From: Patescibacteria group bacterium
GTDB taxonomy: Bacteria; Patescibacteriota; Minisyncoccia; Phycocordibacterales; JAGLPS01
Reading direction: 5' to 3'
Assembly (NCBI GenBank): GCA_038057845.1
Contig: JBBUCK010000090.1
Span: 17,183 to 52,984, forward strand
Length of the DNA: 35,802 nucleotides
Shown: piece by piece, positions 1,484 through 11,552 of the stretch
How positions within the stretch are numbered: position 1 is the stretch's first letter
How the letters are laid out: the number at the start of each line of letters is the position of its first letter
Program-made: the position numbers and the translations under genes
Notes under the pieces: model-generated
Databases searched by the model: none
Told to the model about the DNA's origin: nothing
Seen by the model: the letters and a program-made list of their open reading frames with translations, nothing else

Positions 1484-2167
1484 TTACGCTTCTCGCATGA
1501 TATCCCGATGAAATAACCATCCCCCAATAAATGCCGCCGCGTAGGCAAAGAGAGATACTAAAACAAGAAATAATATATTGCCGCTCAAGATGGCGTCTCC
1601 AAACAAAATACCGATGGTGGTCCCTGGAGTATGAAGTACCATCATTGAAGCAATAAAAATCGGAAAGGAAACTTTTGTAAGTCCTGCTGTATAAGCAAAA
1701 ATTTCAGGGAATCCAGCAAAAGCAAGACGGGCCTTAAGAAAAGCCGATAGTTTTGAACTGCGTGAAAGTATTTTTTCAAGATTTGGTACTTGAGACTGCG
1801 GCACAAAAAACATAACAATTGAGCGTCCGAAAAAGCGACTGATATAAAAAGCGACCGAGAACCCGAGAACGTCGCCAATTGCCGTGACAGCTAAACCCTT
1901 CCAAAAACCAAATGCGGCGCCGGCAATCGCGTAAACGGGTCCACCCCCGAGAGGAACAACGATAATAGTTGTCATCTTGAGGGCAATAACCGCAAGAGGA
2001 GCCCAGATCCCTGCCGTTTTAACAATATCTTCAAGGCGGTCAATCCCGATTGAAACGGTAAGCCAGTATGCGCATCCAATCGTAATGACAAAAAATATAA
2101 TATTTTTTAGAGCATCGTGAAGCGATGCTTTTTGTCCTTCCTGACTTTCAAGTATGGGTTTTTCCAT
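1484..2167 (-). CDS. VTT/TVP38/DedA-superfamily membrane protein
   Basis: Multiple TM helices; AGAAFGFWKG, G..LG..VAFYISRFFG and Y.AGLTKV patterns. Start uncertain (2167 or 2212). Confidence 0.8.
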   Translation of the reverse strand: MEKPILESQEGQKASLHDALKNIIFFVITIGCAYWLTVSIGIDRLEDIVKTAGIWAPLAVIALKMTTIIVVPLGGGPVYAIAGAAFGFWKGLAVTAIGDVLGFSVAFYISRFFGRSIVMFFVPQSQVPNLEKILSRSSKLSAFLKARLAFAGFPEIFAYTAGLTKVSFPIFIASMMVLHTPGTTIGILFGDAILSGNILFLVLVSLFAYAAAFIGGWLFHRDIMREA

Positions 2168-2236
2168 TGTTTCGGCTAAAACAAATTTTATAAAATTTGT
2201 TCGCTCAAACATTTTTCTATGAAAAATGTTTTAGGG

Positions 2237-2309
<73 letters not shown>

Positions 2310-2390
2310 ATTTAATCTAAAAAGTGTAAAGTATATTCTACCCCCGCCCGAGGCGGGTCAGCCTTGGGCTGAAAGACGGCTAAGGCGGCA
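2310..2390 (-). repeat. Upstream partial duplication of the tRNA-Thr(CGU) 5' end with inserted hairpins
   Basis: gctaaggcggca at 2299-2310 and 2379-2390; hairpins ccgcccgaggcgg (2344-2356) and tcagcc-ttg-ggctga between them. Confidence 0.6.
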
Positions 2391-2503
2391 AATATCTTTA
2401 ACGATTTACTGGGACATACTTTAGCAAAAACTACCGTAAAACAGAAGTCGGTAAAATGCTATAATTACCCTGCATTCTTTTACCAACCTTAACATAAATT
2501 ATT

Positions 2504-2743
2504 ATGAACGCTTCAGCACAGGCAGTTGAAAATCTTAAAAGAGAGATTGAAAAAGAAAGTCAAGAAATTCACAAAAAGGAAAGTGATTTAAGCAAAAAGA
2601 AACAGGAACTACAAAAAATTGAAGTGGAAATTAAAACGCTTGAATCGGAAATAGGACAATTGCATGGGCATATGTCTGAAAATGAAAGAGAAATTAAAGA
2701 TATACAGCAAGAACTGCAAAAAATGATGCAGAGCAAGAATTAA
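2504..2743 (+). CDS. Small coiled-coil hypothetical protein
   Basis: 79-aa E/K/Q-rich heptad pattern; TGCTATAAT promoter upstream and terminator downstream. Confidence 0.7.
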   Translation: MNASAQAVENLKREIEKESQEIHKKESDLSKKKQELQKIEVEIKTLESEIGQLHGHMSENEREIKDIQQELQKMMQSKN

Positions 2744-2780
2744 ACAAAAAGACACGGTTTCTCCCGTGTCTTTTTGTTTA
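2741..2780. terminator. Bidirectional intrinsic terminator
   Basis: taaacaaaaagacacgg-tttctc-ccgtgtctttttgttta (17-bp inverted repeat) between convergent units. Confidence 0.8.
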
Positions 2781-2791
2781 ACATGCGCCTT

Positions 2792-2915
2792 GAGCCGTTG
2801 GCCAGATTGGTCACAGCTCGCTATAGCGGACGCGACCCCGCCTCAACGTCGCAAAGCGACATATTCCGGCCTTCAATTCTGGATAGACGCAAAGCAGTTT
2901 GCGTCTTCCAAACGG
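2792..2915 (-). repeat. tRNA-3'-tethered structured element (copy 1, on tRNA-Thr-GGU)
   Basis: Inverted copy of the T-arm (2872-2882 vs 2926-2936) and direct copy of the tRNA 3' end (gagccgttggccaga, 2792-2806 vs 2916-2930); core shared with 10646-10801 and 13051-13277. Confidence 0.75.
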
Positions 2916-2916
2916 G

Positions 2917-3180
2917 AGCCGTTGGCCAGAATTGAACTGGCGACCTACTCCTTCATATATACTCCTTTTTACCGAAACACTTATATAAGGAGATTAGACT
3001 GTATCTTTCTCCGCCTCGGGCGGAGACCCTTGTCAGTCGTTCGAGCCCTTCGATTTCCTCAGGGCTACGGTCTGACCCTGTGCGAGGGCTTTAACCGTAA
3101 TTCGGGATTCACTAGAAGATTACTCTCAAAGTGGGCAAAAATTTACCATGGAGTTGCTCTACCAACTGAGCTACAACGGC
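2917..3180 (-). tRNA. tRNA-Thr(GGU), intron-containing (exons 3145-3180 and 2917-2953)
   Basis: Joined exons give a 73-nt cloverleaf: GCCGTTG...ACTCC-AT-GGT^AA-GGAGT...GCCAG-TTCAATT-CTGGC-CAACGGC-T. Confidence 0.92.
2954..3144 (-). ncRNA. Group I intron (191 nt, no ORF) inserted just 3' of the anticodon (36/37)
   Basis: 5' exon ends in U, with P1 GGU/GCC giving a U.G pair; intron ends in G; P4 ACGGT/ACCGT, P5 GCCCT/AGGGT, P7 GACTG/CAGTC in AACGACTGA ... AAGATACAGTCTA, P8 TCTCCG/CGGAGA, P9 CTCCTT/AAGGAG. Confidence 0.88.
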
Positions 3181-3442
3181 ATTTTTTGTTCTGGTAATAC
3201 ACCAGAACAAAATAATGGCGTCGTACTAAAAAGTCTACTGCCTGCCCGTGAGATTGCGAAGCAATCTTTTCGGGGAGCTACAACGGCAAGTGAGGAATAG
3301 AGAGGATGCTAGCATACTCTCTATTTCCGAGCGAAGCCGTTGCAAGCTTTGCTTACAACGGCAAGTGAGGAGAAAAGGAAGCACAAGTACTTACTTTATC
3401 TCCGAACGCCACCGTTGCAAGGGTACTATCCCTTACAACGGC
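3181..3442 (-). repeat. Tandem structured units in the tRNA-Thr(GGU) 5' leader, each starting with a copy of the tRNA 5' end
   Basis: GCCGTTGTA begins at 3442, 3362, 3287 and 3180 (the tRNA); unit lengths 80, 75 and 107 nt. Confidence 0.8.
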
Positions 3443-3508
3443 AAGTGCCTCACCTTGTATTCCCCTTCTGTAAGAGGAAGGCAGGCACCAAGTACAAGCC
3501 TGCATATT

Positions 3509-3517
3509 AGTATATCA
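3509..3517 (-). promoter_or_regulatory. Extended -10 promoter for the tRNA-Thr(GGU) transcript
   Basis: TGATATACT on the minus strand upstream of the repeat leader. Confidence 0.5.
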
Positions 3518-3670
3518 GGCAACCTTTTTCAAATGCTATTTTTAATCTAATCTTCCAACAACAAGATTGAGTTTTTCCAACCGTTATCTCAAGCTACCCC
3601 CATCATCAATTTTGCACGATCGTGTAATATTGATGATAGCTAAAAATCTTAGAAATCTTGGCCGGAAAAA

Positions 3671-5548
3671 TTAATCAGAAATTTCTTGGAGAATCTTCTC
3701 CGCCTTACTAACAAGATCAAGGGCGGCAGAAGAGTCTATGACCCGATTCTTTCTATAGAAATTCACTTGAGCGACAAAAGCTTCGAGACTCTTTTCCACT
3801 CCTTCTTGTAGGCGTTTGATTTTCTTTTGCAATTTCTCGTCGTCAGGATTAGTAACCAAGTCATTTTCAAATTCTTGAAGGTCCTTAAGACCCTCAAGGA
3901 CTAAAACCAAATTTATACGAAGTGTTTTATACGCAAAAAAACTTTTAATAAGTCCGTTTGCCCGATATGCATCAACGAGAGCGATAAGACTTTCGGTCAT
4001 TTGAATCGGGTCTGCCGTTTCTTCAAGCTCATATGGTTCGCTTATATCGGCAGGAGTCGTTTCATTTATTGGATCGTAGTTTACCGTATAGCCAATTTCC
4101 TGCCCTGTTATGACAGTGCCTTGAACGGTATTAACTATGTCGGAGTCATCATCAATATGCGATACACCCATGTGATATTCCCCGTTGCCGATTCCCGTTA
4201 GCTCAATCTTGTACTCGCCATTAATCGGGTTAGGGATAGTTACAAATTTCGGGCCAAGAGGGTCGCTTGTTGATTCGTAAAAGGCCTCGGGAATTTCGTT
4301 TATATCTTTTGTTATGACAGTGCCGTCGGGAGCCACCACCTTTACATCAACAGGAGAGGCAAACCAGAATGAGAGGATGGCGTTTGGTTCATAGGGTGGG
4401 AGAATTACGCCGGATGGCGCGGAAAGTCCTAATGAGGCGAAAATATGTGAAATTGCATTAGTCGGTAATTCTTCATGAGGAGAACTGACTACGTAGTAAT
4501 TAATCAACGCGGCGGATTGTGCGTGCACAGGAGTAAAAAATTGTGCAAACCATTTTAAGAAAGGAGAAGTGTCGTCTTTGACAAGAACAGGCACATACGG
4601 AAAATCGATTTCAGCGCTAAACGCAAGAACAGTATTATCTCCAATTGCGTCGTTAGGAATCGGGTCAAGCGGGTCTGGTTTTCCATCAACCCACAACTTA
4701 GGTTCTGTACCACGGTCAACGACGGGAATTGTATTTACTGTGCTAGAGCCTGTGCCGGCAACCATAGTAATTTCCCGCACTCGATCTTGTAAGTCAAAAA
4801 GGCCTGTTTCAGAATTAAGCCACGCCAAAAGTGGATTCTGTTCGTTGAGATTAGAAGTGAATTTTGTTATCTGTGTGTCTTTGTCTGTCACATAGTCGTA
4901 AACCGGTAGAAGTTCTTTGATGGAAGGAAAAAAGGTGTGAATCGCATCATAATTATCACGAATAGATAGATGAGAAAAATCTAAATACCAAAGATACTTA
5001 TTTATGTCAGCTTTCGCACCCTCTGACCAATGATCCGGAAGTCTTCCCCCTTCCCACACACCATATGCATCAGAAGAACCATAATTAGGAGTCCCGAGCA
5101 TGAAAAACTGGTCGACATCATTTCGGTAATTACTTCCCTGAATATATGCCCGAGCAACAAGACCCCCCATACTGTGCGCAATAATATCAACCTTTCCTGA
5201 CTGTGAGTACTGCTTTGCCTGATTAATAACAGGTATAAGATAATTAGAAACAGAATCGGTGTTATTTTTTCGCCAATCGTAATGAGCGATGAAAAGATTT
5301 TGACCCTCAACAAAACCGCTTATTTCAAGGGCATTAATGAGATTGTTATAATTTTTCGCATTTTCCGAGAACCCCCACGGAGTTTGAACCAGAGTTTTGT
5401 TAGTAAACACATCGGTGTTTAGAGATGAACCAAAACCAGGGATAATTACGATAGGATCTGGTTCAGACAACTGGGCGTTACTGGCGAGAGACAGGGTCAG
5501 AAAAAGAACGAAAATAAAGAAAGATTTTATGAGTGTATGTTTATTCAT
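3671..5548 (-). CDS. Secreted alpha/beta-hydrolase (PGAP1/LCAT-like lipase or acyltransferase) with C-terminal beta and helical domains
   Basis: Signal peptide; PIVIIPG oxyanion region, AHSMGG nucleophile elbow, LGTPNYGS, GDNTV (Asp) and PHEELP (His). Confidence 0.85.
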   Translation of the reverse strand: MNKHTLIKSFFIFVLFLTLSLASNAQLSEPDPIVIIPGFGSSLNTDVFTNKTLVQTPWGFSENAKNYNNLINALEISGFVEGQNLFIAHYDWRKNNTDSVSNYLIPVINQAKQYSQSGKVDIIAHSMGGLVARAYIQGSNYRNDVDQFFMLGTPNYGSSDAYGVWEGGRLPDHWSEGAKADINKYLWYLDFSHLSIRDNYDAIHTFFPSIKELLPVYDYVTDKDTQITKFTSNLNEQNPLLAWLNSETGLFDLQDRVREITMVAGTGSSTVNTIPVVDRGTEPKLWVDGKPDPLDPIPNDAIGDNTVLAFSAEIDFPYVPVLVKDDTSPFLKWFAQFFTPVHAQSAALINYYVVSSPHEELPTNAISHIFASLGLSAPSGVILPPYEPNAILSFWFASPVDVKVVAPDGTVITKDINEIPEAFYESTSDPLGPKFVTIPNPINGEYKIELTGIGNGEYHMGVSHIDDDSDIVNTVQGTVITGQEIGYTVNYDPINETTPADISEPYELEETADPIQMTESLIALVDAYRANGLIKSFFAYKTLRINLVLVLEGLKDLQEFENDLVTNPDDEKLQKKIKRLQEGVEKSLEAFVAQVNFYRKNRVIDSSAALDLVSKAEKILQEISD

Positions 5549-5560
5549 AAGATTAAAATA

Positions 5561-6109
5561 TTAAAGATATTTAGCAAAAGCCCCAAGTCCCTCTATCATC
5601 TCAACAAAAAATCGATGTGCCAAAAAAGCGAAAAAACCGGTACTCGCAGCAAGTACCACAAACCAGCTTTTTAAAGTAAATTTTTCGTATATCAATCCTC
5701 TTAAATAAAACATGGAAAGAGGCCATAAAACGATCAGAGATAAATCCTGTATAAGAGGCACCTCCGACAAACTACGCCCGATTTCAGAGTAATAATTAAT
5801 ACCTTGTAAATAAAGCCAATCTTCAAACTTCCAGAATAATTCAATAATAAAATTAGATAACCAGAAAGAAAGAGGATAGATCCAAAAAATCCACCACCAT
5901 CTCACCGGTTGAATCTTCTTAATTCTGACAAAGAAAAATGGAAGAAGTGTAATTAAAATTATAACCAAAGGTAGAAGCCAGTCTGTTACAAAAAGAAAGA
6001 TTTTGTTTTCTTCCGCAAGATAATTAACTCGCTCAGTAGTAACTTTTACGACAAAAAAAACTACAGCTACAGCTAAAACCCAGCGCAATGACCAAATCTT
6101 TTTTTTCAT
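5561..6109 (-). CDS. Polytopic membrane protein, candidate partner/immunity protein of the lipase
   Basis: About 5 TM helices; shares W..P, PF, K..KW/RW and LWPLS motifs with 6116-6364 and 6894-7364. Confidence 0.7.
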   Translation of the reverse strand: MKKKIWSLRWVLAVAVVFFVVKVTTERVNYLAEENKIFLFVTDWLLPLVIILITLLPFFFVRIKKIQPVRWWWIFWIYPLSFWLSNFIIELFWKFEDWLYLQGINYYSEIGRSLSEVPLIQDLSLIVLWPLSMFYLRGLIYEKFTLKSWFVVLAASTGFFAFLAHRFFVEMIEGLGAFAKYL

Positions 6110-6115
6110 TCAGAT

Positions 6116-6364
6116 TTAATTATACAAATAATTCAAACTTAATAAAATATTTTTCCATTTTATAGGCTTGAAGCTATGGAAACTAATAAAGAGAAACGGA
6201 CAAAGTGTTGAAAACAACAACAAAAGTGGTGGAAGCCATTCTGTAAAAAAAAGTCTCAGATCTGGCCCAGAAAGATATTGAACTGGGTTTGCTGTTCTTT
6301 CGATAAGAATAAAAACTAAGAAAAAACTTGCGAGCCAAAATATATTCAAAATTTTTTCTTTCAC
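6116..6364 (-). pseudogene. Truncated paralog of the 5561-6109 membrane protein
   Basis: LFFTEWLPPL...TLCPFLF..KPIKW aligns with LFVTDWLLPL...TLLPFFF..QPVRW but stops at 82 aa. Confidence 0.55.
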
Positions 6365-6422
6365 TAAATTTATTATAACAGATAGTTAAGAACTAAAAAT
6401 AGTATCCTTTCTCGTTGTCAGA

Positions 6423-6884
6423 TTAGCCATAATTGGGAGTGCCCAACAAAAATAGCTGGTCAACATCGTTACGATAATTATTTCCCTGAATATATGCACG
6501 AACAACCAAACCGCCCATGCTGTGAGCAATAATGTCTATTTTTCCATTTGGCGCATTCTGGAGCGTTTGATTAATAGTAGGAATTAAATAATTGATTGCA
6601 CTATCCAGATTGCTTTGCCTCCAGTCATAGTGAGCAATAAAAAGAGTCTGATTTAAAACATATCCTTTTATTTCTAGCTCGTTAATAAGATTGTTATAAT
6701 TTTTTGCACCAGCGGTAAAACCCCATGGGGTCTGGACTGGTACTTTATTTATAAAAATATCAGTATTTACAGAAGCCCCTATACCAGGAATGATTATGAT
6801 GGGGTCTGGGTCAGTTAGTTGCGCATGAATAAAAGAAAAACCAACTACAAATAAAGTTAATAAGATAAATAATTTATACTTCAT
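6423..6884 (-). pseudogene. Truncated paralog of the lipase (N-terminal 153 aa only)
   Basis: Highly similar to the N-terminus of 3671-5548; ends GTPNYG-TAA-TCT-GAC, i.e. G*SD versus GSSD in the full copy; lacks catalytic Asp and His. Confidence 0.75.
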
Positions 6885-6893
6885 TGTAAAAAT

Positions 6894-7364
6894 TTAAAAT
6901 AGTAATCCCCCAAAACCATCTGATATTCCATAAATTAAATACTGCCAAATAAAAGTACCGAGTCCAAGACTTACAATAAATGACAAGAGTAAATTTCTTA
7001 AATTAAATTTGATATTAAGTATCTTTAATATCCAAAATGTGGAAAGAGGCCATAAAAGGAAAAAACCTAAAAATGTATTGGAGCGACTATTCTCCATCGC
7101 CAAAACAATGTTAGTAAGACCACTTAAACGAGCTAATAGGGTTGTGATAGAGTCAACGAGATAAAAATTAAGTTCAAAATGAATAAACCACGATAATGCA
7201 TACGCAAAAGGTACAAAATACCATTTTGCGAGTTTAAAGCGTTTAATGCTGATAACTATGAACGGAGAGAAAACCAAAATGAGAAGAATTACAAAAGTTG
7301 CCCATTGAATGGTCTCTGGAATAATTAAGTCAAAAAAAAGGGAGTGTAGGAAAGTTTTATCCAT
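6894..7364 (-). CDS. Polytopic membrane protein, paralog of 5561-6109
   Basis: TM helices; FSPF..SIKRFKLAKW..AYALSW and LLWPLS..KFNLR motifs; directly upstream of the truncated lipase. Confidence 0.7.
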   Translation of the reverse strand: MDKTFLHSLFFDLIIPETIQWATFVILLILVFSPFIVISIKRFKLAKWYFVPFAYALSWFIHFELNFYLVDSITTLLARLSGLTNIVLAMENSRSNTFLGFFLLWPLSTFWILKILNIKFNLRNLLLSFIVSLGLGTFIWQYLIYGISDGFGGLLF

Positions 7365-7392
7365 TAATTTTTATTATGTCAAAAATACTGTG

Positions 7393-8379
7393 TTAAATTT
7401 TTGAAAGATAGTTTCGTTTAAGAGCAAAAGACATATAACCTGCCCCCATCATCCCAAGACCAGCAATAACAAGAGCAAGTGGCCAACCTAAACTGCTTGA
7501 AAAATATTCGGAGGTAATTTTAAGTATATATAACATTAAAAAGACTGTTCCCCACGTTAGAAACGAATTACTCTTGAGATAGACGCTTAAAAACAGAGCC
7601 CAGAAAACTAAACCGGGATAAATTAATTCCCAAAATACATTTTGACTTGGTTTCCATTCCCCAAGCATTAATGCTGCCCCAAGAAATCCCAATATACCGA
7701 AACCGTACAGAAATCCGGAAAGTGGAGCACGTTCATTCTTGGAGAAAGAGTGTCCTATTAGTATATAGGCAATACTGGCAATAAGAACACGGTACATATA
7801 GAACTTCCAATCATTAAAATAGACCCCTCCTTCTGTTATAAAACTCGTAAAACTAAAAAAGAACGATGTAGCAAAAAGGGTACTAAATAATGTAAAAATA
7901 TTTTTATGAAACACAAAATATGACAAAAGGTAAGTTCCTAAAAGGATACCGGAGATGGTACTCTGCGAACCAAAGCTGTTGGCATCAAAACCTGCGTTAT
8001 CAAAAACAATCCAGAGACCGACTGGCATCACGAGTACAGAGATAAGGTGGAATGCTGATCCAATAACATCAGTTTCCTTATCTTTGTTAAATAGCAAACC
8101 AACAAAATAAGCGGCAATACCAGAACCGAGCGTTGCCAAAACTTTTGTTACAAATCCCAATATTGACCAATTTTGCCAAACTAAGATTGAAATTCCCAAG
8201 AAAATGATTGCGCCACCGATGTAGTATAAAATTTCAGCGATGCCAAGTTTTTTTGTCAAAACAAAATCTGTCTTAATGTCACTTCCAGAATCATACGCCT
8301 CTGTTAATTCCTTCTTTGTAATAATTTTTTGCTCAGCAAGCATTCGGACATATCCTAAAACCTCTTCCTTGTTTGCCAT
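7393..8379 (-). CDS. Multi-pass membrane protein (DUF2157-like)
   Basis: ILYYIGGAIIFLGI...NWS pattern; about 10 TM helices. Confidence 0.7.
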   Translation of the reverse strand: MANKEEVLGYVRMLAEQKIITKKELTEAYDSGSDIKTDFVLTKKLGIAEILYYIGGAIIFLGISILVWQNWSILGFVTKVLATLGSGIAAYFVGLLFNKDKETDVIGSAFHLISVLVMPVGLWIVFDNAGFDANSFGSQSTISGILLGTYLLSYFVFHKNIFTLFSTLFATSFFFSFTSFITEGGVYFNDWKFYMYRVLIASIAYILIGHSFSKNERAPLSGFLYGFGILGFLGAALMLGEWKPSQNVFWELIYPGLVFWALFLSVYLKSNSFLTWGTVFLMLYILKITSEYFSSSLGWPLALVIAGLGMMGAGYMSFALKRNYLSKI

Positions 8380-8384
8380 AATAT

Positions 8385-8894
8385 TTATTTTATCCAGCCA
8401 ATAAAACGAAAAGATGGACCATTCAACTGAAGCTTCTTACTTACATTATGACCCTTAAGATACCGTATATCGTAGTCATTTTCCGACCAGAAGAAAAATG
8501 GGAAGAAACTATTACTGCGACTGCCGTAAACAATTTCAAAACCATCGGGTGATACGGCGTTTGAATCAAAATTTAAATACTGTGTTTGCTCAAATGAAAT
8601 CTCTTTACTTTCATTTTTTACAACATCATAAATGTAGAGCGTGCTTTTACTTTGTGGTAAATTATAATTGGGATTTTCACGTCTTTGTGTTTCACTCCTA
8701 ATCAAAGCCCCATTCTGCACAGAATACTGATATTTGTTGTAGTAGTAAGAACTGCTTTCAACTAAGTATAGAAAATTATACTTAGGTTTAATAAAAATTC
8801 CCGGTAGATAAATGCTCCCAGCAACAAACAATATCATTAATATTGGGATAGACGCACCTACAATGAATGTTATGTTTTTCTTAATTATCTCCAT
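8385..8894 (-). CDS. Hypothetical membrane-anchored protein
   Basis: N-terminal TM helix, soluble aromatic-rich domain ending FIGWI; co-oriented with its neighbours. Confidence 0.7.
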   Translation of the reverse strand: MEIIKKNITFIVGASIPILMILFVAGSIYLPGIFIKPKYNFLYLVESSSYYYNKYQYSVQNGALIRSETQRRENPNYNLPQSKSTLYIYDVVKNESKEISFEQTQYLNFDSNAVSPDGFEIVYGSRSNSFFPFFFWSENDYDIRYLKGHNVSKKLQLNGPSFRFIGWIK

Positions 8895-8953
8895 ATCTTT
8901 AGTATATCAAGAAAACTTAATCGAAAGCTTCTTTATAGGTTGTTCCATATTTT

Positions 8954-9415
8954 TTAATTAAAAAGATAACTAAGAAAGGCTAAAAGAATACCGCCAATAA
9001 AAAAACGGTAATAGGACATAGGCATGGGTCCATACCAATGAGGATGCCACGGAATATTTTCTTTATTAAATTTTGAGATACCAAAATGCGGATTTAATAC
9101 AAACCAGAGAAAATCTTCAATAATCCAAAAAAAGAAATAGAGCGACATAATGCGTAGTTCCCATGCTGGGCTCCACTCTGCGGCAAGAAAAAACGGGAAA
9201 TGAAGAAAAACAAATATTGAAAGAAAAAGCCAGAGATGATATCCAGTAAGTGGTGATTTCCCCCAAAAAAGGTTCATTGCCTTATATTTTATACGCCATG
9301 TAGGCAAGTTTTCCGCCCATCCGTGCTTACCTTCAATATTGATTTCTAGTTTCGCAACGCAGTATGCAATCAAAGGAAGGAAAACAAGTGCTCGAAGAAA
9401 CGCTTCGTCAATCAT
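8954..9415 (-). CDS. Hypothetical membrane protein
   Basis: LEINIEG..GWA..LPTW, TGYH and EDFLWFVLNP motifs with TM segments. Confidence 0.7.
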   Translation of the reverse strand: MIDEAFLRALVFLPLIAYCVAKLEINIEGKHGWAENLPTWRIKYKAMNLFWGKSPLTGYHLWLFLSIFVFLHFPFFLAAEWSPAWELRIMSLYFFFWIIEDFLWFVLNPHFGISKFNKENIPWHPHWYGPMPMSYYRFFIGGILLAFLSYLFN

Positions 9416-9839
9416 TATATGAAAAAATTAACGTATTAGGATGCGAGGCCAACCATGTTTGAAAAGCTACTTCAACAGGAATAAAAACTTCGCCTGTTTC
9501 GGCATGAGTCATTATTACTTTCCCTTTTGAATCACGACTCACCACGACAGGCTCTCCGGCGATTTGGTCGTAGATTGGATTTATGCTTCCAAATATATAC
9601 GCCGGATAAGCCTTGTTGTATTCACTAATAGAGAAACCGTACACGGGAGTCGAAGCAGACAATTTTTCTTCCATATTCTGAACATTTTCCTCACTGGGAA
9701 CATCGAGAGTGCCCCTATCAGAAAACTCATTATTCTTTGAAGAATTTAACTTAGCAGGTAAAGAAAAAACAAAGTAAACGAGAATAAGCAATAGTATGCC
9801 GAAAAGTAGTTGGGGGAGATATTTTTGTATGTTTATCAT
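9408..9839 (-). CDS. Hypothetical membrane-anchored protein (C-terminus reminiscent of DUF3179)
   Basis: TM anchor; KAYP and F..W...HPNT motifs; start uncertain. Confidence 0.55.
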   Translation of the reverse strand: MINIQKYLPQLLFGILLLILVYFVFSLPAKLNSSKNNEFSDRGTLDVPSEENVQNMEEKLSASTPVYGFSISEYNKAYPAYIFGSINPIYDQIAGEPVVVSRDSKGKVIMTHAETGEVFIPVEVAFQTWLASHPNTLIFSYND

Positions 9840-9870
9840 TTCATTCCAGTATAACAAATGTTAATAGAAC

Positions 9871-9899
9871 TTGTATGCACTCTTGTTTCGTGTTATATT
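9871..9899 (+). promoter_or_regulatory. Sigma70-type promoter for tRNA-fMet
   Basis: TTGTAT, 17 nt, then TATATT with a TGn extension. Confidence 0.5.
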
Positions 9900-9953
9900 T
9901 CGCCCATTATCCGAGAGTCAATCCACTAACAAGTGAATTGCCCACGGACAGAT

Positions 9954-10024
9954 CGCGGGATGGAGAAGTAGTATCTCGGAAGGCTCATAACCTTCAGGCC
10001 CTGGTGCAATTCCAGGTCCCGCAA
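9954..10024 (+). tRNA. Initiator tRNA-fMet(CAU)
   Basis: CGCGGGA/TCCCGCA with C1.A72 mismatch; GAAGG-CT-CAT-AA-CCTTC anticodon arm; CCTGG-TGCAATT-CCAGG T-arm. Confidence 0.88.
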
Positions 10025-10039
10025 AAGTTTCGAGGAAAC

Positions 10040-10114
10040 TTTTGCGAGGCTCGCCAAAAAGGCGGCCCGCAATCATTTTGCGAGGCTCGTCTCGCCAGAG
10101 GCGGACGGCCCGCA
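10040..10114 (+). repeat. Two tandem hairpin units ending in a copy of the tRNA-fMet 3' end
   Basis: ttttgcgaggctcg at 10040 and 10076; cggcccgca at 10063 and 10106 (the tRNA ends ggtcccgca). Confidence 0.65.
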
Positions 10115-10160
10115 TTTACACAAAAAACCTCCACCTTAGGCTGGCGGTTTTTTGTGTAAA
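10115..10160. terminator. Long hairpin/terminator
   Basis: tttacacaaaaaacc ... ggttttttgtgtaaa 15-bp inverted repeat. Confidence 0.7.
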
Positions 10161-10170
10161 ATTGGGATAT

Positions 10171-10410
10171 ATGTACTTCGTCTATATTCTTCTAAGTTAT
10201 AAAGATAACAGAACATATGTCGGATATGCAAAAAATCTAACAGCTCGGCTATATGAACATAACTGTGGACGTGTAAAAGCAACAAAACATCGTCGACCGT
10301 TTAAAATGTTCTATTCAGAACAATTTCCAACATTAAAAGAAGCAAAAAAACGTGAACTGTGGTGGAAAAGTAGTAGAGGTAGAAGTGAACTCAAGAAGTT
10401 TTTTGTATAG
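10171..10410 (+). CDS. Small GIY-YIG nuclease family protein (79 aa)
   Basis: YFVYIL...TYVG...RL.EHN.G...TK..RP...EA..RE...KS..GR pattern. Confidence 0.88.
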   Translation: MYFVYILLSYKDNRTYVGYAKNLTARLYEHNCGRVKATKHRRPFKMFYSEQFPTLKEAKKRELWWKSSRGRSELKKFFV

Positions 10411-10490
10411 TGAAAGAGATTTGTAGGGATATTAATTTTACTTTATCCAATATAGATTTTACTTAGAGAGTGTAGTAATCTAGGAAATAC

Positions 10491-10573
10491 ACCGACGCAA
10501 GGGAGCCTTATAGTTCCTTGTGTCGGCAGCATTCGGAGAAAGAATGCACACGCGCCTTCTTTGCTCCTCATTT
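10491..10573 (+). repeat. tRNA-5'-tethered acceptor-stem-mimic unit on tRNA-Met
   Basis: ACCGACG-CAAG-hairpin-CTTG-TGTCGGC-A-GCATTCGGAG-hairpin-CTCCTCATTT directly abutting the tRNA; same layout as 3288-3442. Confidence 0.75.
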
Positions 10574-10645
10574 GCCGACGTAGCTCAGTGGTAGAGCACT
10601 TCACTCATAAAGAAGTGGTTGGAGGTTCGATTCCTCCCGTCGGCA
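10574..10645 (+). tRNA. tRNA with CAU anticodon (probably elongator Met; Ile2 not excluded)
   Basis: GCCGACG/CGTCGGC-A acceptor stem; CTTCA-CT-CAT-AA-AGAAG (31.39 mismatch); GGAGG-TTCGATT-CCTCC. Confidence 0.88.
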
Positions 10646-10801
10646 CCCGCAGGGTGGCGCGGAGTCCTGCAACTGCTTGCAGGACGGGAGGAATCGAAGA
10701 CCGTAGCGATGTTTTTGCAAAAGCAAAAACCGCGAGGGCGGCCTGCGAGTTCTTGAGCGGAAGCGAGAGAAACTTGTAGGCAATCCCTGCCGTCGGCACC
10801 A
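10646..10801 (+). repeat. tRNA-3'-tethered structured element (copy 2, on tRNA-Met)
   Basis: gacgggaggaatcgaa (10683-10698) is the exact reverse complement of 10626-10641; ccgtcggcacc is repeated at 10790-10800. Confidence 0.78.
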
Positions 10802-10825
10802 GTAATCTATTGGGTTTTAAGTTTG

Positions 10826-10899
10826 CGCGAGCGACGGGACTCGAACCCGCAGCCTTTCCCGTGACAGGGGAATGCTCTAGCCAATTGAGCTACGCCCGC
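10826..10899 (-). tRNA. tRNA-Asp(GUC)
   Basis: GCGGGCG/CGCTCGC-G acceptor stem; TTCCC-CT-GTC-AC-GGGAA; GCGGG-TTCGAGT-CCCGT. Confidence 0.93.
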
Positions 10900-11552
10900 A
10901 TTTTAATAAACTTTTCGAACACAATTTTCTTTCGAGGTAAGTACAACCTTATTTCTTTGCCATTATACATCCGTTTATACAGATGAAGAGAACTGCGTAT
11001 GCTGTAATATAGCCGAGAAAAACCCTTCCTGCAAGACAGACCTCCTTTTATTCCGTACTCCTCAAGAGCCCTTTTTAAATCCTTTAAAAATCTTTGGGAA
11101 CAGGAAGTAAAAACAGTTTGAATTGCTATGTGTTGTGTTTTTCTTTTTTTGTGAATAATACCGACCCATACATTGCCATCGCCATCAAAATATCCCCGTA
11201 CAAAATGGAAGAGATACCGGGAAGGTATGTTAGGAAAGAAAAGATGGTAAGATTTTTTTTCACACAACCCAAGTGCCCTTAGATCATCACACATTTCATA
11301 GCTTCCAATTTGCAAGGTATATTTTGTCTTTTCATTCCCTGTTCCAGGACGTTTCCCTATGAAATGGTTTGACTGAAGAACAGTGCGTATATCATATAAG
11401 AGTTTTTTATCCGTAATCTTCAAATTCAAAAAGTGACTTCCTCTTTTGGAAACGCTTATATTTCCATCAGCAATAATAAAGCCTAAAACATACGCCATGT
11501 TAGCAGACCATTTTTTGAAGAAATTTTTGTTTATTTTTTTATACACAGGCAT
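10890..11552 (-). CDS. Free-standing two-motif LAGLIDADG homing endonuclease-like protein
   Basis: YVLGFIIADG and FVRGYFDGDG motifs; very basic; stop codon lies inside tRNA-Asp (nt 8-10). Confidence 0.88.
   Translation of the reverse strand: MPVYKKINKNFFKKWSANMAYVLGFIIADGNISVSKRGSHFLNLKITDKKLLYDIRTVLQSNHFIGKRPGTGNEKTKYTLQIGSYEMCDDLRALGLCEKKSYHLFFPNIPSRYLFHFVRGYFDGDGNVWVGIIHKKRKTQHIAIQTVFTSCSQRFLKDLKRALEEYGIKGGLSCRKGFSRLYYSIRSSLHLYKRMYNGKEIRLYLPRKKIVFEKFIKMRA

Follow-up and report, generated by a model that had tools for sequence, protein, structure and literature searches.

The window analyzed here is a stretch of 35,802 nucleotides from the genome of a Patescibacteria group bacterium (GCA_038057845.1, contig JBBUCK010000090.1, positions 17,183 to 52,984; host genome G000). 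Its minus strand from 3560 to 2700 was read as one transcription unit for tRNA-Thr(GGU), leading from a promoter-like site through a 61-base leader stretch, two tandem structured units (A and B), a displaced fragment of the gene, an insert, the tRNA itself and a 3′ module to a terminator-like hairpin; a third unit lies at a tRNA-Met(CAU) gene on the plus strand (Table 1). Read by eye, the arrangement TTGAAA-N17-TA(A/T)(T/G)AT also stands upstream of the Thr unit in two other genomes, G001 and G003. Where the window has its 61-base leader stretch, G001 has only about 15 bases, and the sequence of the stretch would possibly fit a decayed older unit. The promoter scan called no promoter-like site within the 94-base insert. 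The original prediction places units A and B before the tRNA they resemble. They do lie upstream of it, but the 13-base copy of the tRNA 5′ end and the 94-base insert separate unit B from G1 of the gene at 3180.

Table 1. Coordinates of the three units, the two tRNA genes and their accompanying features in the window
Feature	Position	Strand	Basis or remark
Promoter-like site TTGAAA-17-TAATAT heading the tRNA-Thr(GGU) unit	3504..3532	-	Sole sigma-70-like call in 2650-3650
61-base leader stretch from promoter to unit A, ending in GGCACTT	3443..3503	-	Sequence reading
Unit A	3363..3442	-	R1, 68.4 bits; RNAfold
Unit A, hairpin 1	3411-3442	-	Copy of tRNA bases 1-9, cap, inverted copy
Unit A, linker GGCGT-TC		-	
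Unit A, hairpin 2	3369-3403	-	
Unit A, tail TCACTT	3363-3368	-	
Unit B	3288..3362	-	R1, 78.4 bits; RNAfold
Unit B, hairpin 1	3336-3362	-	
Unit B, linker TTCGC-TC		-	
Unit B, hairpin 2	3294-3328	-	
Unit B, tail TCACTT	3288-3293	-	
13-base copy of the tRNA-Thr 5′ end (GCCGTTGTAGCTC), displaced gene fragment	3275..3287	-	Sequence reading
94-base insert with two hairpins, between fragment and working tRNA	3181..3274	-	Sequence reading
tRNA-Thr(GGU)	2917..3180	-	Exon 1, 3143-3180; exon 2, 2917-2951
191-base anticodon-loop insertion, candidate group I intron	2952-3142	-	ARAGORN intron option
3′ module ending in a second copy of the tRNA-Thr 3′ end	2791-2916	-	
Terminator-like hairpin	near 2741-2782	-	
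Met unit	10491..10573	+	R1, 61.1 bits; folds
Met unit, hairpin 1	10491-10527	+	
Met unit, linker AGCAT-TC		+	
Met unit, hairpin 2	10535-10567	+	
Met unit, tail TCATTT	10568-10573	+	
tRNA-Met(CAU), adjoined by the Met unit	10574..10648	+	ARAGORN and Rfam tRNA model, 73.7 bits

Because of the 191-base insertion in its anticodon loop, tRNA-Thr(GGU) was missed both by ARAGORN without its intron option and by Rfam at the gathering score. With the intron option, ARAGORN returned 2915-3180 with a 191-base intron and the label His(atg); the anticodon GGT is our own reading, with which the intron-less G001 ortholog is in accord. The Rfam Intron_gpI model, whose gathering score is 50, gave a weak match to the insertion (21 bits, E = 0.0069). 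No anticodon-loop insertion is present in the tRNA-Thr orthologs of G001 and G003, and in G119, a unit-bearing tRNA-Asp is interrupted by 234 bases at a comparable position. The module behind tRNA-Thr is one of many in this genome: 3′ modules of 120 to 170 bases follow numerous tRNAs, both in the window (2791-2916 on the minus strand and 10649-10800 on the plus strand) and on contigs C9, C20, C31, and C32. They combine an antisense copy of the T-loop region with a conserved GGGGTCGCG-hairpin-CGTGACC block and end with a second T-arm 3′ strand, acceptor 3′ strand and discriminator, in the manner of the tRNA-linked repeats (TLRs) of Escherichia coli. A CTGAGAG...CTCGAACGAGGTC motif occurs in some 3′ modules as well as inside the Thr insertion.

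The scaffold that had been described for two units at 3288-3442 (minus strand) and one at 10491-10573 (plus strand) was confirmed in all three. Units A and B read GCCGTTG-TAAG-loop-CTTG-CAACGG(T/C), followed by a 5-base linker, TCGGAR, a hairpin and YTCCTCACTT. The Met unit reads ACCGACG-CAAG...CTTG-TGTCGGC-A-GCAT-TCGGAG-hairpin-CTCCTCATTT and directly adjoins G1 of its tRNA. RNAfold places two hairpins in each unit, and units A and B are identical at 59 of 83 aligned columns. Rfam returned no family over either unit-bearing segment, whether the whole window was searched at the gathering score or 2700-3600 at E values up to 1. Only mechanical open frames overlap the units, with no family match at threshold; the 100-amino-acid frame at 3248-3550 (plus strand) gave a DMRT-like match of 20.8 bits, below the cut-off of 27. 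Two candidate identities were rejected: no core motif of a self-cleaving ribozyme (hammerhead, HDV-like, or other) was recognised by eye in a unit, and a group I P1 helix with U:G at base 8 does not describe hairpin 1, since base 8 pairs as T:G, T:T, or C:G among the units. DNA contigs from four sequencing runs cover the Thr region; for 2000-11000 of the window, no RNA run was found. Those of run X7, from an independent study, match 3143-3447 without difference and those of run X2 match 3155-3441 without difference, so the tandem pair is not an assembly artefact. Run X6 holds a strain variant of unit B in which two double changes keep the hairpin 2 pairs 3321/3300 and 3317/3304 (indexed from the RNAfold structure of unit B). 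As compensatory changes, these show selection on pairing, without saying in which molecule.

The scaffold pattern matched 15 times in 41 genomes, against 3 times for the same pattern reversed. In 3 of 40 related genomes, the pattern of the original prediction picked out cognate units ahead of Thr, Phe, Lys, and Met genes, and many more cognate units before tRNAs emerged when 401 genomes were searched. Within the same order, a covariance model built from 22 units (R1) then gave 74 units, spread over 33 of the 151 genomes searched, the other 118 having none; across the rest of the phylum (about 149 genomes) it gave two weak matches, one of them a true unit before tRNA-Gly. Classified by what follows them, 36 of the 74 matches abut a tRNA and 8 a further unit; a TAYAVT box lies at +6 in 14, and the remaining 16 have other neighbours. 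By our own count, tRNA loci hold 49 of the 74 units, leaving about one unit in three with no tRNA behind it. The tRNA-abutting units span 19 anticodon classes, and every one of them has the orientation of its tRNA and ends directly at +1 with T at -1, a base found in 86 of 86 aligned units (alignment column 219). Orientation, abutment at +1, and T at -1 also fit a role in RNA processing.

In the 755-kb host genome, the best R1 score beyond the three window units is 16.4 bits, and 2 of the 22 tRNA genes found (Thr and Met) bear units. G001, which belongs to the same genus, has units at Thr, Phe, and Asp and none at Met. The same isoacceptors, namely, Thr-GGU, Met-CAU, Gly-UCC, and Trp, bear units in several families, which could reflect inheritance under selection. 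Viral contigs were scanned with a single pattern variant, TCGGAA-N18-46-TTCCTCAYTT; applied to 80 of at least 113 pattern-matching stretches, R1 gave only 7 matches of 20 to 27 bits; by eye, none of them shows a cognate hairpin 1 or is followed by a tRNA. In the literature outside subscription journals, our searches turned up no account of leaders or cassettes of this kind from Patescibacteria/CPR.

All parts of the unit follow a fixed order: a sequence X, a short cap, its reverse complement X′, NGC, R-Y, TC, a variable hairpin, TC, R-Y, and TT, after which comes the X of the gene. We defined X as the first 9 bases downstream of the unit. These almost always have the form G-N6-TA, with G at base +1 in 70 of 74 cases and TA at bases +8 and +9 in 65 of 74. 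In 46 of the 74 units, the start of the unit repeats the 9 downstream bases at 8 or 9 positions, compared with 2.5% of shuffled pairings; an antisense copy that pairs with them at 8 or 9 positions is present in 65 of the units (control, 20%). Among 24 units, which range from 70 to 87 bases in length, 13 have a 5′ arm that matches the tRNA over all 9 bases. The cassette thus delimited, a resident of ultra-small groundwater bacteria, measures about 75 bases and has no reading frame. Hairpin 1 has 12 to 14 stacked pairs and starts with the cognate 7-base acceptor sequence. Over 86 aligned units, 84.9% of the cells are paired, as against 62.2% after shuffling (none of 500 shuffles reached the observed value) and 38 to 53% in slid controls. 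The linker C is almost invariant (85 of 86). Linker and tail form a 2-base helix that covaries (GT/AC, 26; AT/AT, 10; GC/GC, 9; AC/GT, 8; n = 84) and flanks a constant mismatch of TC opposite TC. Read by eye, hairpin 2 often closes in a small palindrome with a C-N-A-G loop.

The survey upholds part of the original prediction. It had proposed a 5′-side element family whose first stem tracks the adjacent tRNA, and this holds at 36 tRNAs of 19 anticodon classes, with the copy rule obeyed by 46 of 74 units; the scaffold does recur ahead of further tRNAs, and the stem varies with the tRNA. Tandem amplification is likewise borne out, since 8 of the 74 units directly precede another unit and several of these 8 pairs are identical.

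What did not survive is the idea that hairpin 1 faithfully mimics an acceptor stem or minihelix. Its 5′ arm does equal tRNA bases 1 to 7 at the head of a helix of about 12 pairs, as in a minihelix, but just 7 of 35 cases have the real 3′ acceptor strand of the tRNA as the 3′ arm (the rows compared include two that are not tRNAs). Instead, the 3′ arm complements the 5′ arm, so that G:U pairs of the tRNA are replaced by Watson-Crick pairs; G3:U70 of tRNA-Ala, for instance, becomes G:C in 4 of 5 Ala units. The helix continues through tRNA bases 8 and 9 (TA), which are not part of the acceptor stem, and is followed by a conserved GCRY-TC instead of CCA. The discriminator match reported for unit B and the Met unit is present in both; it is not a property of the family, in which the base behind the helix and the discriminator agree 15 times in 35, compared with 10.4 expected by chance. 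Templating by tRNAs as such fails as well, the same cassette and the same copy rule being found at protein-gene promoters and other non-tRNA sites. The likeness to a tRNA stem arises only because the cassette usually sits before tRNAs, and a function such as that of a chargeable minihelix should not be read into a likeness that follows from the copying rule.

The sites without a tRNA include a class of their own. In 7 matches, the flank has the form G-N4-TATAAT-like with a start codon at +18, and the frame that begins there has 114 codons or more or continues to the end of the locus; the copy rule holds at these promoter-type sites too. The start codon comes 6 bases after the -10-like box, and several such flanks read TGATATAAT, which we take to be a match to the extended -10 consensus. 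The -10 box sites before protein genes lack a good -35 and for this reason were not called in the promoter scan; we read them as promoters because a TATAAT-like box is followed by 6 bases and a start codon. Judged by sequence, this geometry is that of a leaderless promoter, so that a unit located there would lie upstream of the transcription start. Protein genes also start 6 bases after a TGATATAAT box at loci L090, L091, L111 to L113, and L100 (genomes G062, G005, and G073), which suggests that leaderless mRNAs may be common in these genomes.

Units at different sites of one genome resemble each other in hairpin 2. Of 79 pairs of units from different loci of the same genome, 17 reach an identity of 0.8 or more in hairpin 2, compared with 0.7% of 2,613 between-genome pairs, while hairpin 1 differs; in G149, a unit before tRNA-Thr and a unit at a non-tRNA site are 97% identical. 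Neither strand is favored: the more stable fold is the sense one in 31 units and the antisense one in 41, and wobble cells comprise 96 G:T and 106 A:C. Orphan units were also encountered, with X′ and X of tRNA-Met at non-tRNA sites in G149 and X′ and X of tRNA-Thr beside tRNA-Trp in G001. Seven matches show a unit, then a 13- to 48-base tRNA 5′ fragment, an insert, and the full tRNA; this layout occurs in G035, G040 (twice), G044, and G149, in addition to the Thr gene of the window. The promoter-site class, the 3′ arm complementing the 5′ arm, the lack of strand bias, the likeness within genomes, and the linker-tail helix are new here.

The material between fragment and tRNA is a second type of insertion, a hairpin-rich insert of 57 to 160 bases behind a 13- to 48-base fragment, seen at 3181-3287 of the window (minus strand), at about 12400-12490 of contig C31 of the host genome, and at loci L085, L092, L106, and L120. 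The inserts at the window Thr gene and at a Lys gene of G035 begin alike, with CC-hairpin-GG followed by CA(C)GGCAG. Together, units, displaced fragments, and introns make the tRNA genes of ultra-small bacteria easy to mis-annotate.

On balance, we favor the view that the units are copies of a short DNA cassette, mobile or duplicative and not made for tRNAs in particular, which enters a G-N6-TA site behind base 9, regenerates the displaced end, and is passively co-transcribed where it lies in a tRNA leader. We infer an insertion origin, an intermediate, an enzyme, and a resetting of X and X′ at each new site. The copy rule, an X′ made from X and not from the 3′ strand of the tRNA, the conserved structure, the non-tRNA sites, the shared hairpin 2, the absence of strand bias, the quick turnover between related genomes and dispensability of the units, and the displaced tRNA 5′ fragments are the reasons for this reading. 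The cassette would enter right after base 9, bringing or regenerating a working copy of the displaced 9 bases, so that a tRNA 5′ end or a promoter -10 box would stay intact. The displaced copy of X would stay upstream and fold with X′ into hairpin 1. Opened at X, the cassette would correspond to a small circle recombined with the chromosome within X by Campbell-type integration, in which X′ may present or guide the core, as in the guide-target pairing of IS200/IS605 elements or the folded attC site of integrons. The direct copies of X flanking a unit would permit tandem gain and loss by repeated insertion or unequal exchange. Before tRNAs, the cassette sits between promoter and gene and is therefore carried in the pre-tRNA leader, presumably to be removed by RNase P, with hairpin 1 keeping the antisense arm X′ off the 5′ strand of the tRNA itself.

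A more specific version is held only tentatively and, in our estimate, will rather not prove correct: the unit would be a gene-less, site-specific integrating element of 75 bases whose hairpin holds a copy and an inverted copy of its 9-base G-N6-TA target, so that it could settle on tRNA gene starts or promoter -10 boxes, restore them without a seam, and pile up in tandem, with this guide rewritten at each site by an enzyme of the host or of a phage. We know of no precedent for a joint resetting of X and X′ at a new site. The Y1 transposase domain (PF01797) occurs in 22 of 33 unit-bearing and 68 of 118 unit-free genomes, a cross-count that assumes the same genome sample for both searches and compares incomplete genomes that are not independent by kinship. 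Two of the three GIY-YIG genes of the host genome (about 80 amino acids; Pfam E = 3.6e-16), at 10171-10410 of the window (plus strand) and at C31:12138-12378, end 6 to 83 bases upstream of tRNAs with 5′ insertions, the Met unit in one case and a 19-base Phe fragment in the other. When these GIY-YIG proteins were used as tblastn queries, no homolog was found in 108 unit loci (232 kb) of other genomes. In comparisons of empty and filled sites, the flanks upstream of tRNA-Met in the host genome and G001 do not align, and the same-genus genomes G024 and G138 share only tRNA-sized matches. No excised or circular form of the cassette was seen. If such an element is real, it would be among the smallest site-specific mobile elements known, with natural target recognition by a built-in, resettable DNA hairpin, and would bear on the origin of guide-based targeting.

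Several described systems share single traits with the units. The nearest described relatives are the TLRs of E. coli. They are short non-coding repeats in tRNA and rRNA operons, often in tandem; each repeats one end of its neighbouring gene, and for most of them no function is known. TLRs lie downstream and end in 18 to 19 bp identical to the 3′ end of the gene (PMC8144298). Compared with this account, the units lie upstream, hold 9 bases of the 5′ end together with an inverted copy, have a two-hairpin scaffold, and also occur at promoters, and the 3′ modules of this genome resemble TLRs as so described more closely than the units do. IS200/IS605 elements (IS608) and REP/RAYT systems are reported to be hairpin based and to have their target or cleavage site read by pairing with a short internal guide (PMC5934647, PMC3201880). 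The units agree with IS200/IS605 elements in layout only: X stands directly before the cassette, and in 65 of the 74 units X′ pairs with X at no fewer than 8 of the 9 positions. The IS200/IS605 guide has about 4 bases and partly non-canonical pairing, there is no copy of the target, and the element lies directly 3′ of the target. What the units contain, in contrast, is an inverted copy with Watson-Crick pairing over 9 to 11 bases, plus a further direct copy; their hairpin stems vary, whereas IS200/IS605 stems are constant within the family of a genome.

Integrative elements that target tRNA genes, with duplication of the att core according to the Campbell model, carry a copy of the gene part they displace, so that the gene is whole and a displaced fragment remains beside the element. 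Known examples run to kilobases, code for an integrase, and take the place of the 3′ part of the tRNA, whereas the units have 75 bases, no gene, a position on the 5′ side, a 9-base core, and an added inverted copy. Mitochondrial repetitive hairpin elements reportedly form small gene-less hairpin repeats that invade intergenic regions and gene edges; they belong to other hosts, and to our knowledge no target-copying rule has been reported for them. As for a miniature inverted-repeat transposable element (MITE), X′ and X could serve as inverted ends, yet they change with the site, and X, which stands to the left of X′ and as the right end, is not duplicated again farther right.

The strongest competitor to a DNA cassette is an element acting in cis in the pre-tRNA leader, which we consider unlikely. 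The hairpins and the NGCRY-TC...TC-RY-TT junction would here set up or tune 5′ maturation by RNase P, with X′ pairing either with the upstream copy, which leaves the tRNA free, or with the 5′ strand of the tRNA, which masks or presents the cleavage site like an external guide sequence. Such a role agrees with the position of units downstream of a conserved promoter and upstream of the tRNA, an interval that holds no promoter-like site, with their exact end at +1 behind a T, with their presence at the same isoacceptors in several families, and with the presence of an RNase P RNA in the host genome (97.3 bits, E = 5e-31). Folding is also compatible: the minimum-energy fold of the Met unit and its tRNA keeps the cloverleaf when the 5′ copy is present, and in silico deletion of the first 11 bases loses the acceptor stem, as X′ through tRNA bases 1 to 11 becomes a hairpin of -26.7 kcal/mol. 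Covariation is strong, and the Thr-GGU unit follows a change in the acceptor stem (GCCGTTG in the host genome, GCCGATG in G003). However, the cassette is also found at protein genes, upstream of promoters of the leaderless type, its wobble pairs have no sense-strand bias, and hairpin 2 is nearly identical at unrelated loci of one genome. The unit is moreover dispensable, being found at 2 of 22 tRNAs of the host genome and in 33 of 151 genomes, and species of one genus differ in which tRNAs bear it.

Quite improbable in our view is an origin with no dedicated mobility at all, in which local recurrent replication errors make the units and ordinary recombination between tRNA genes spreads the scaffold. 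Template switching at a quasi-palindrome would extend a hairpin into the flank, and slippage between 9-base direct repeats would generate the arrays. Hairpin 1 does repeat the flank in inverted form almost without error, some tandem units are identical, direct repeats flank the arrays, and no association with an enzyme was found. Replication errors leave unexplained, however, the near-identical second hairpins at unlinked loci, including non-tRNA sites, and the constancy of the junction motifs and of the G-N6-TA rule across 33 genomes.

Synthetic minihelices, microhelices, and external-guide-sequence complexes are substrates of RNase P, the CCA-adding enzyme, and synthetases, and the units share with such minihelices a 12-pair helix starting with the acceptor sequence and a 5′ leader ending in U; they differ in having no NCCA tail, in losing the identity wobble pairs, and in not tracking the discriminator. 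That units released by RNase P act as free minihelix RNAs, serving as substrates or decoys for synthetases, the CCA-adding enzyme, or tRNA-targeting nucleases, is very improbable: the 12 to 14 stacked pairs opening on the cognate 7-base acceptor sequence, the tRNA-like length of 70 to 87 bases, and the same leader tail before each array unit would suit it, but the 3′ arm erases the identity wobble pairs by complementing the 5′ arm, the discriminator is not tracked, GCRY is conserved where CCA would follow, units also stand at non-tRNA sites, and the lack of strand specificity of the wobble pairs lends no support to RNase P-substrate, synthetase-substrate, or decoy roles.

The units put long structured leaders on some pre-tRNAs in organisms without characterised RNA biology. 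Three further observations concern the host genome. The RNase P RNA match, at C31:3086-3572, extends over 487 bases compared with 367 positions in the model, with a score just below the 100-bit cut-off, and suggests that this RNA may carry insertions. At C31:12567-12700, a run of N directly follows tRNA-Phe and precedes a second copy of the 3′ two-thirds of the tRNA; it is probably a scaffolding gap within a repeat. Finally, a related intergenic motif without an Rfam match occurs at C9:12351-12430 and C17:3720-3795 of the host genome and at loci L067, L069, and L071 to L073. It consists of a constant outer helix, TTGTTGCC/GGCAATAA, around GTCGCTCGC-TC-hairpin-(G)CTCACTC, and resembles a unit whose antisense arm is paired to the downstream copy.
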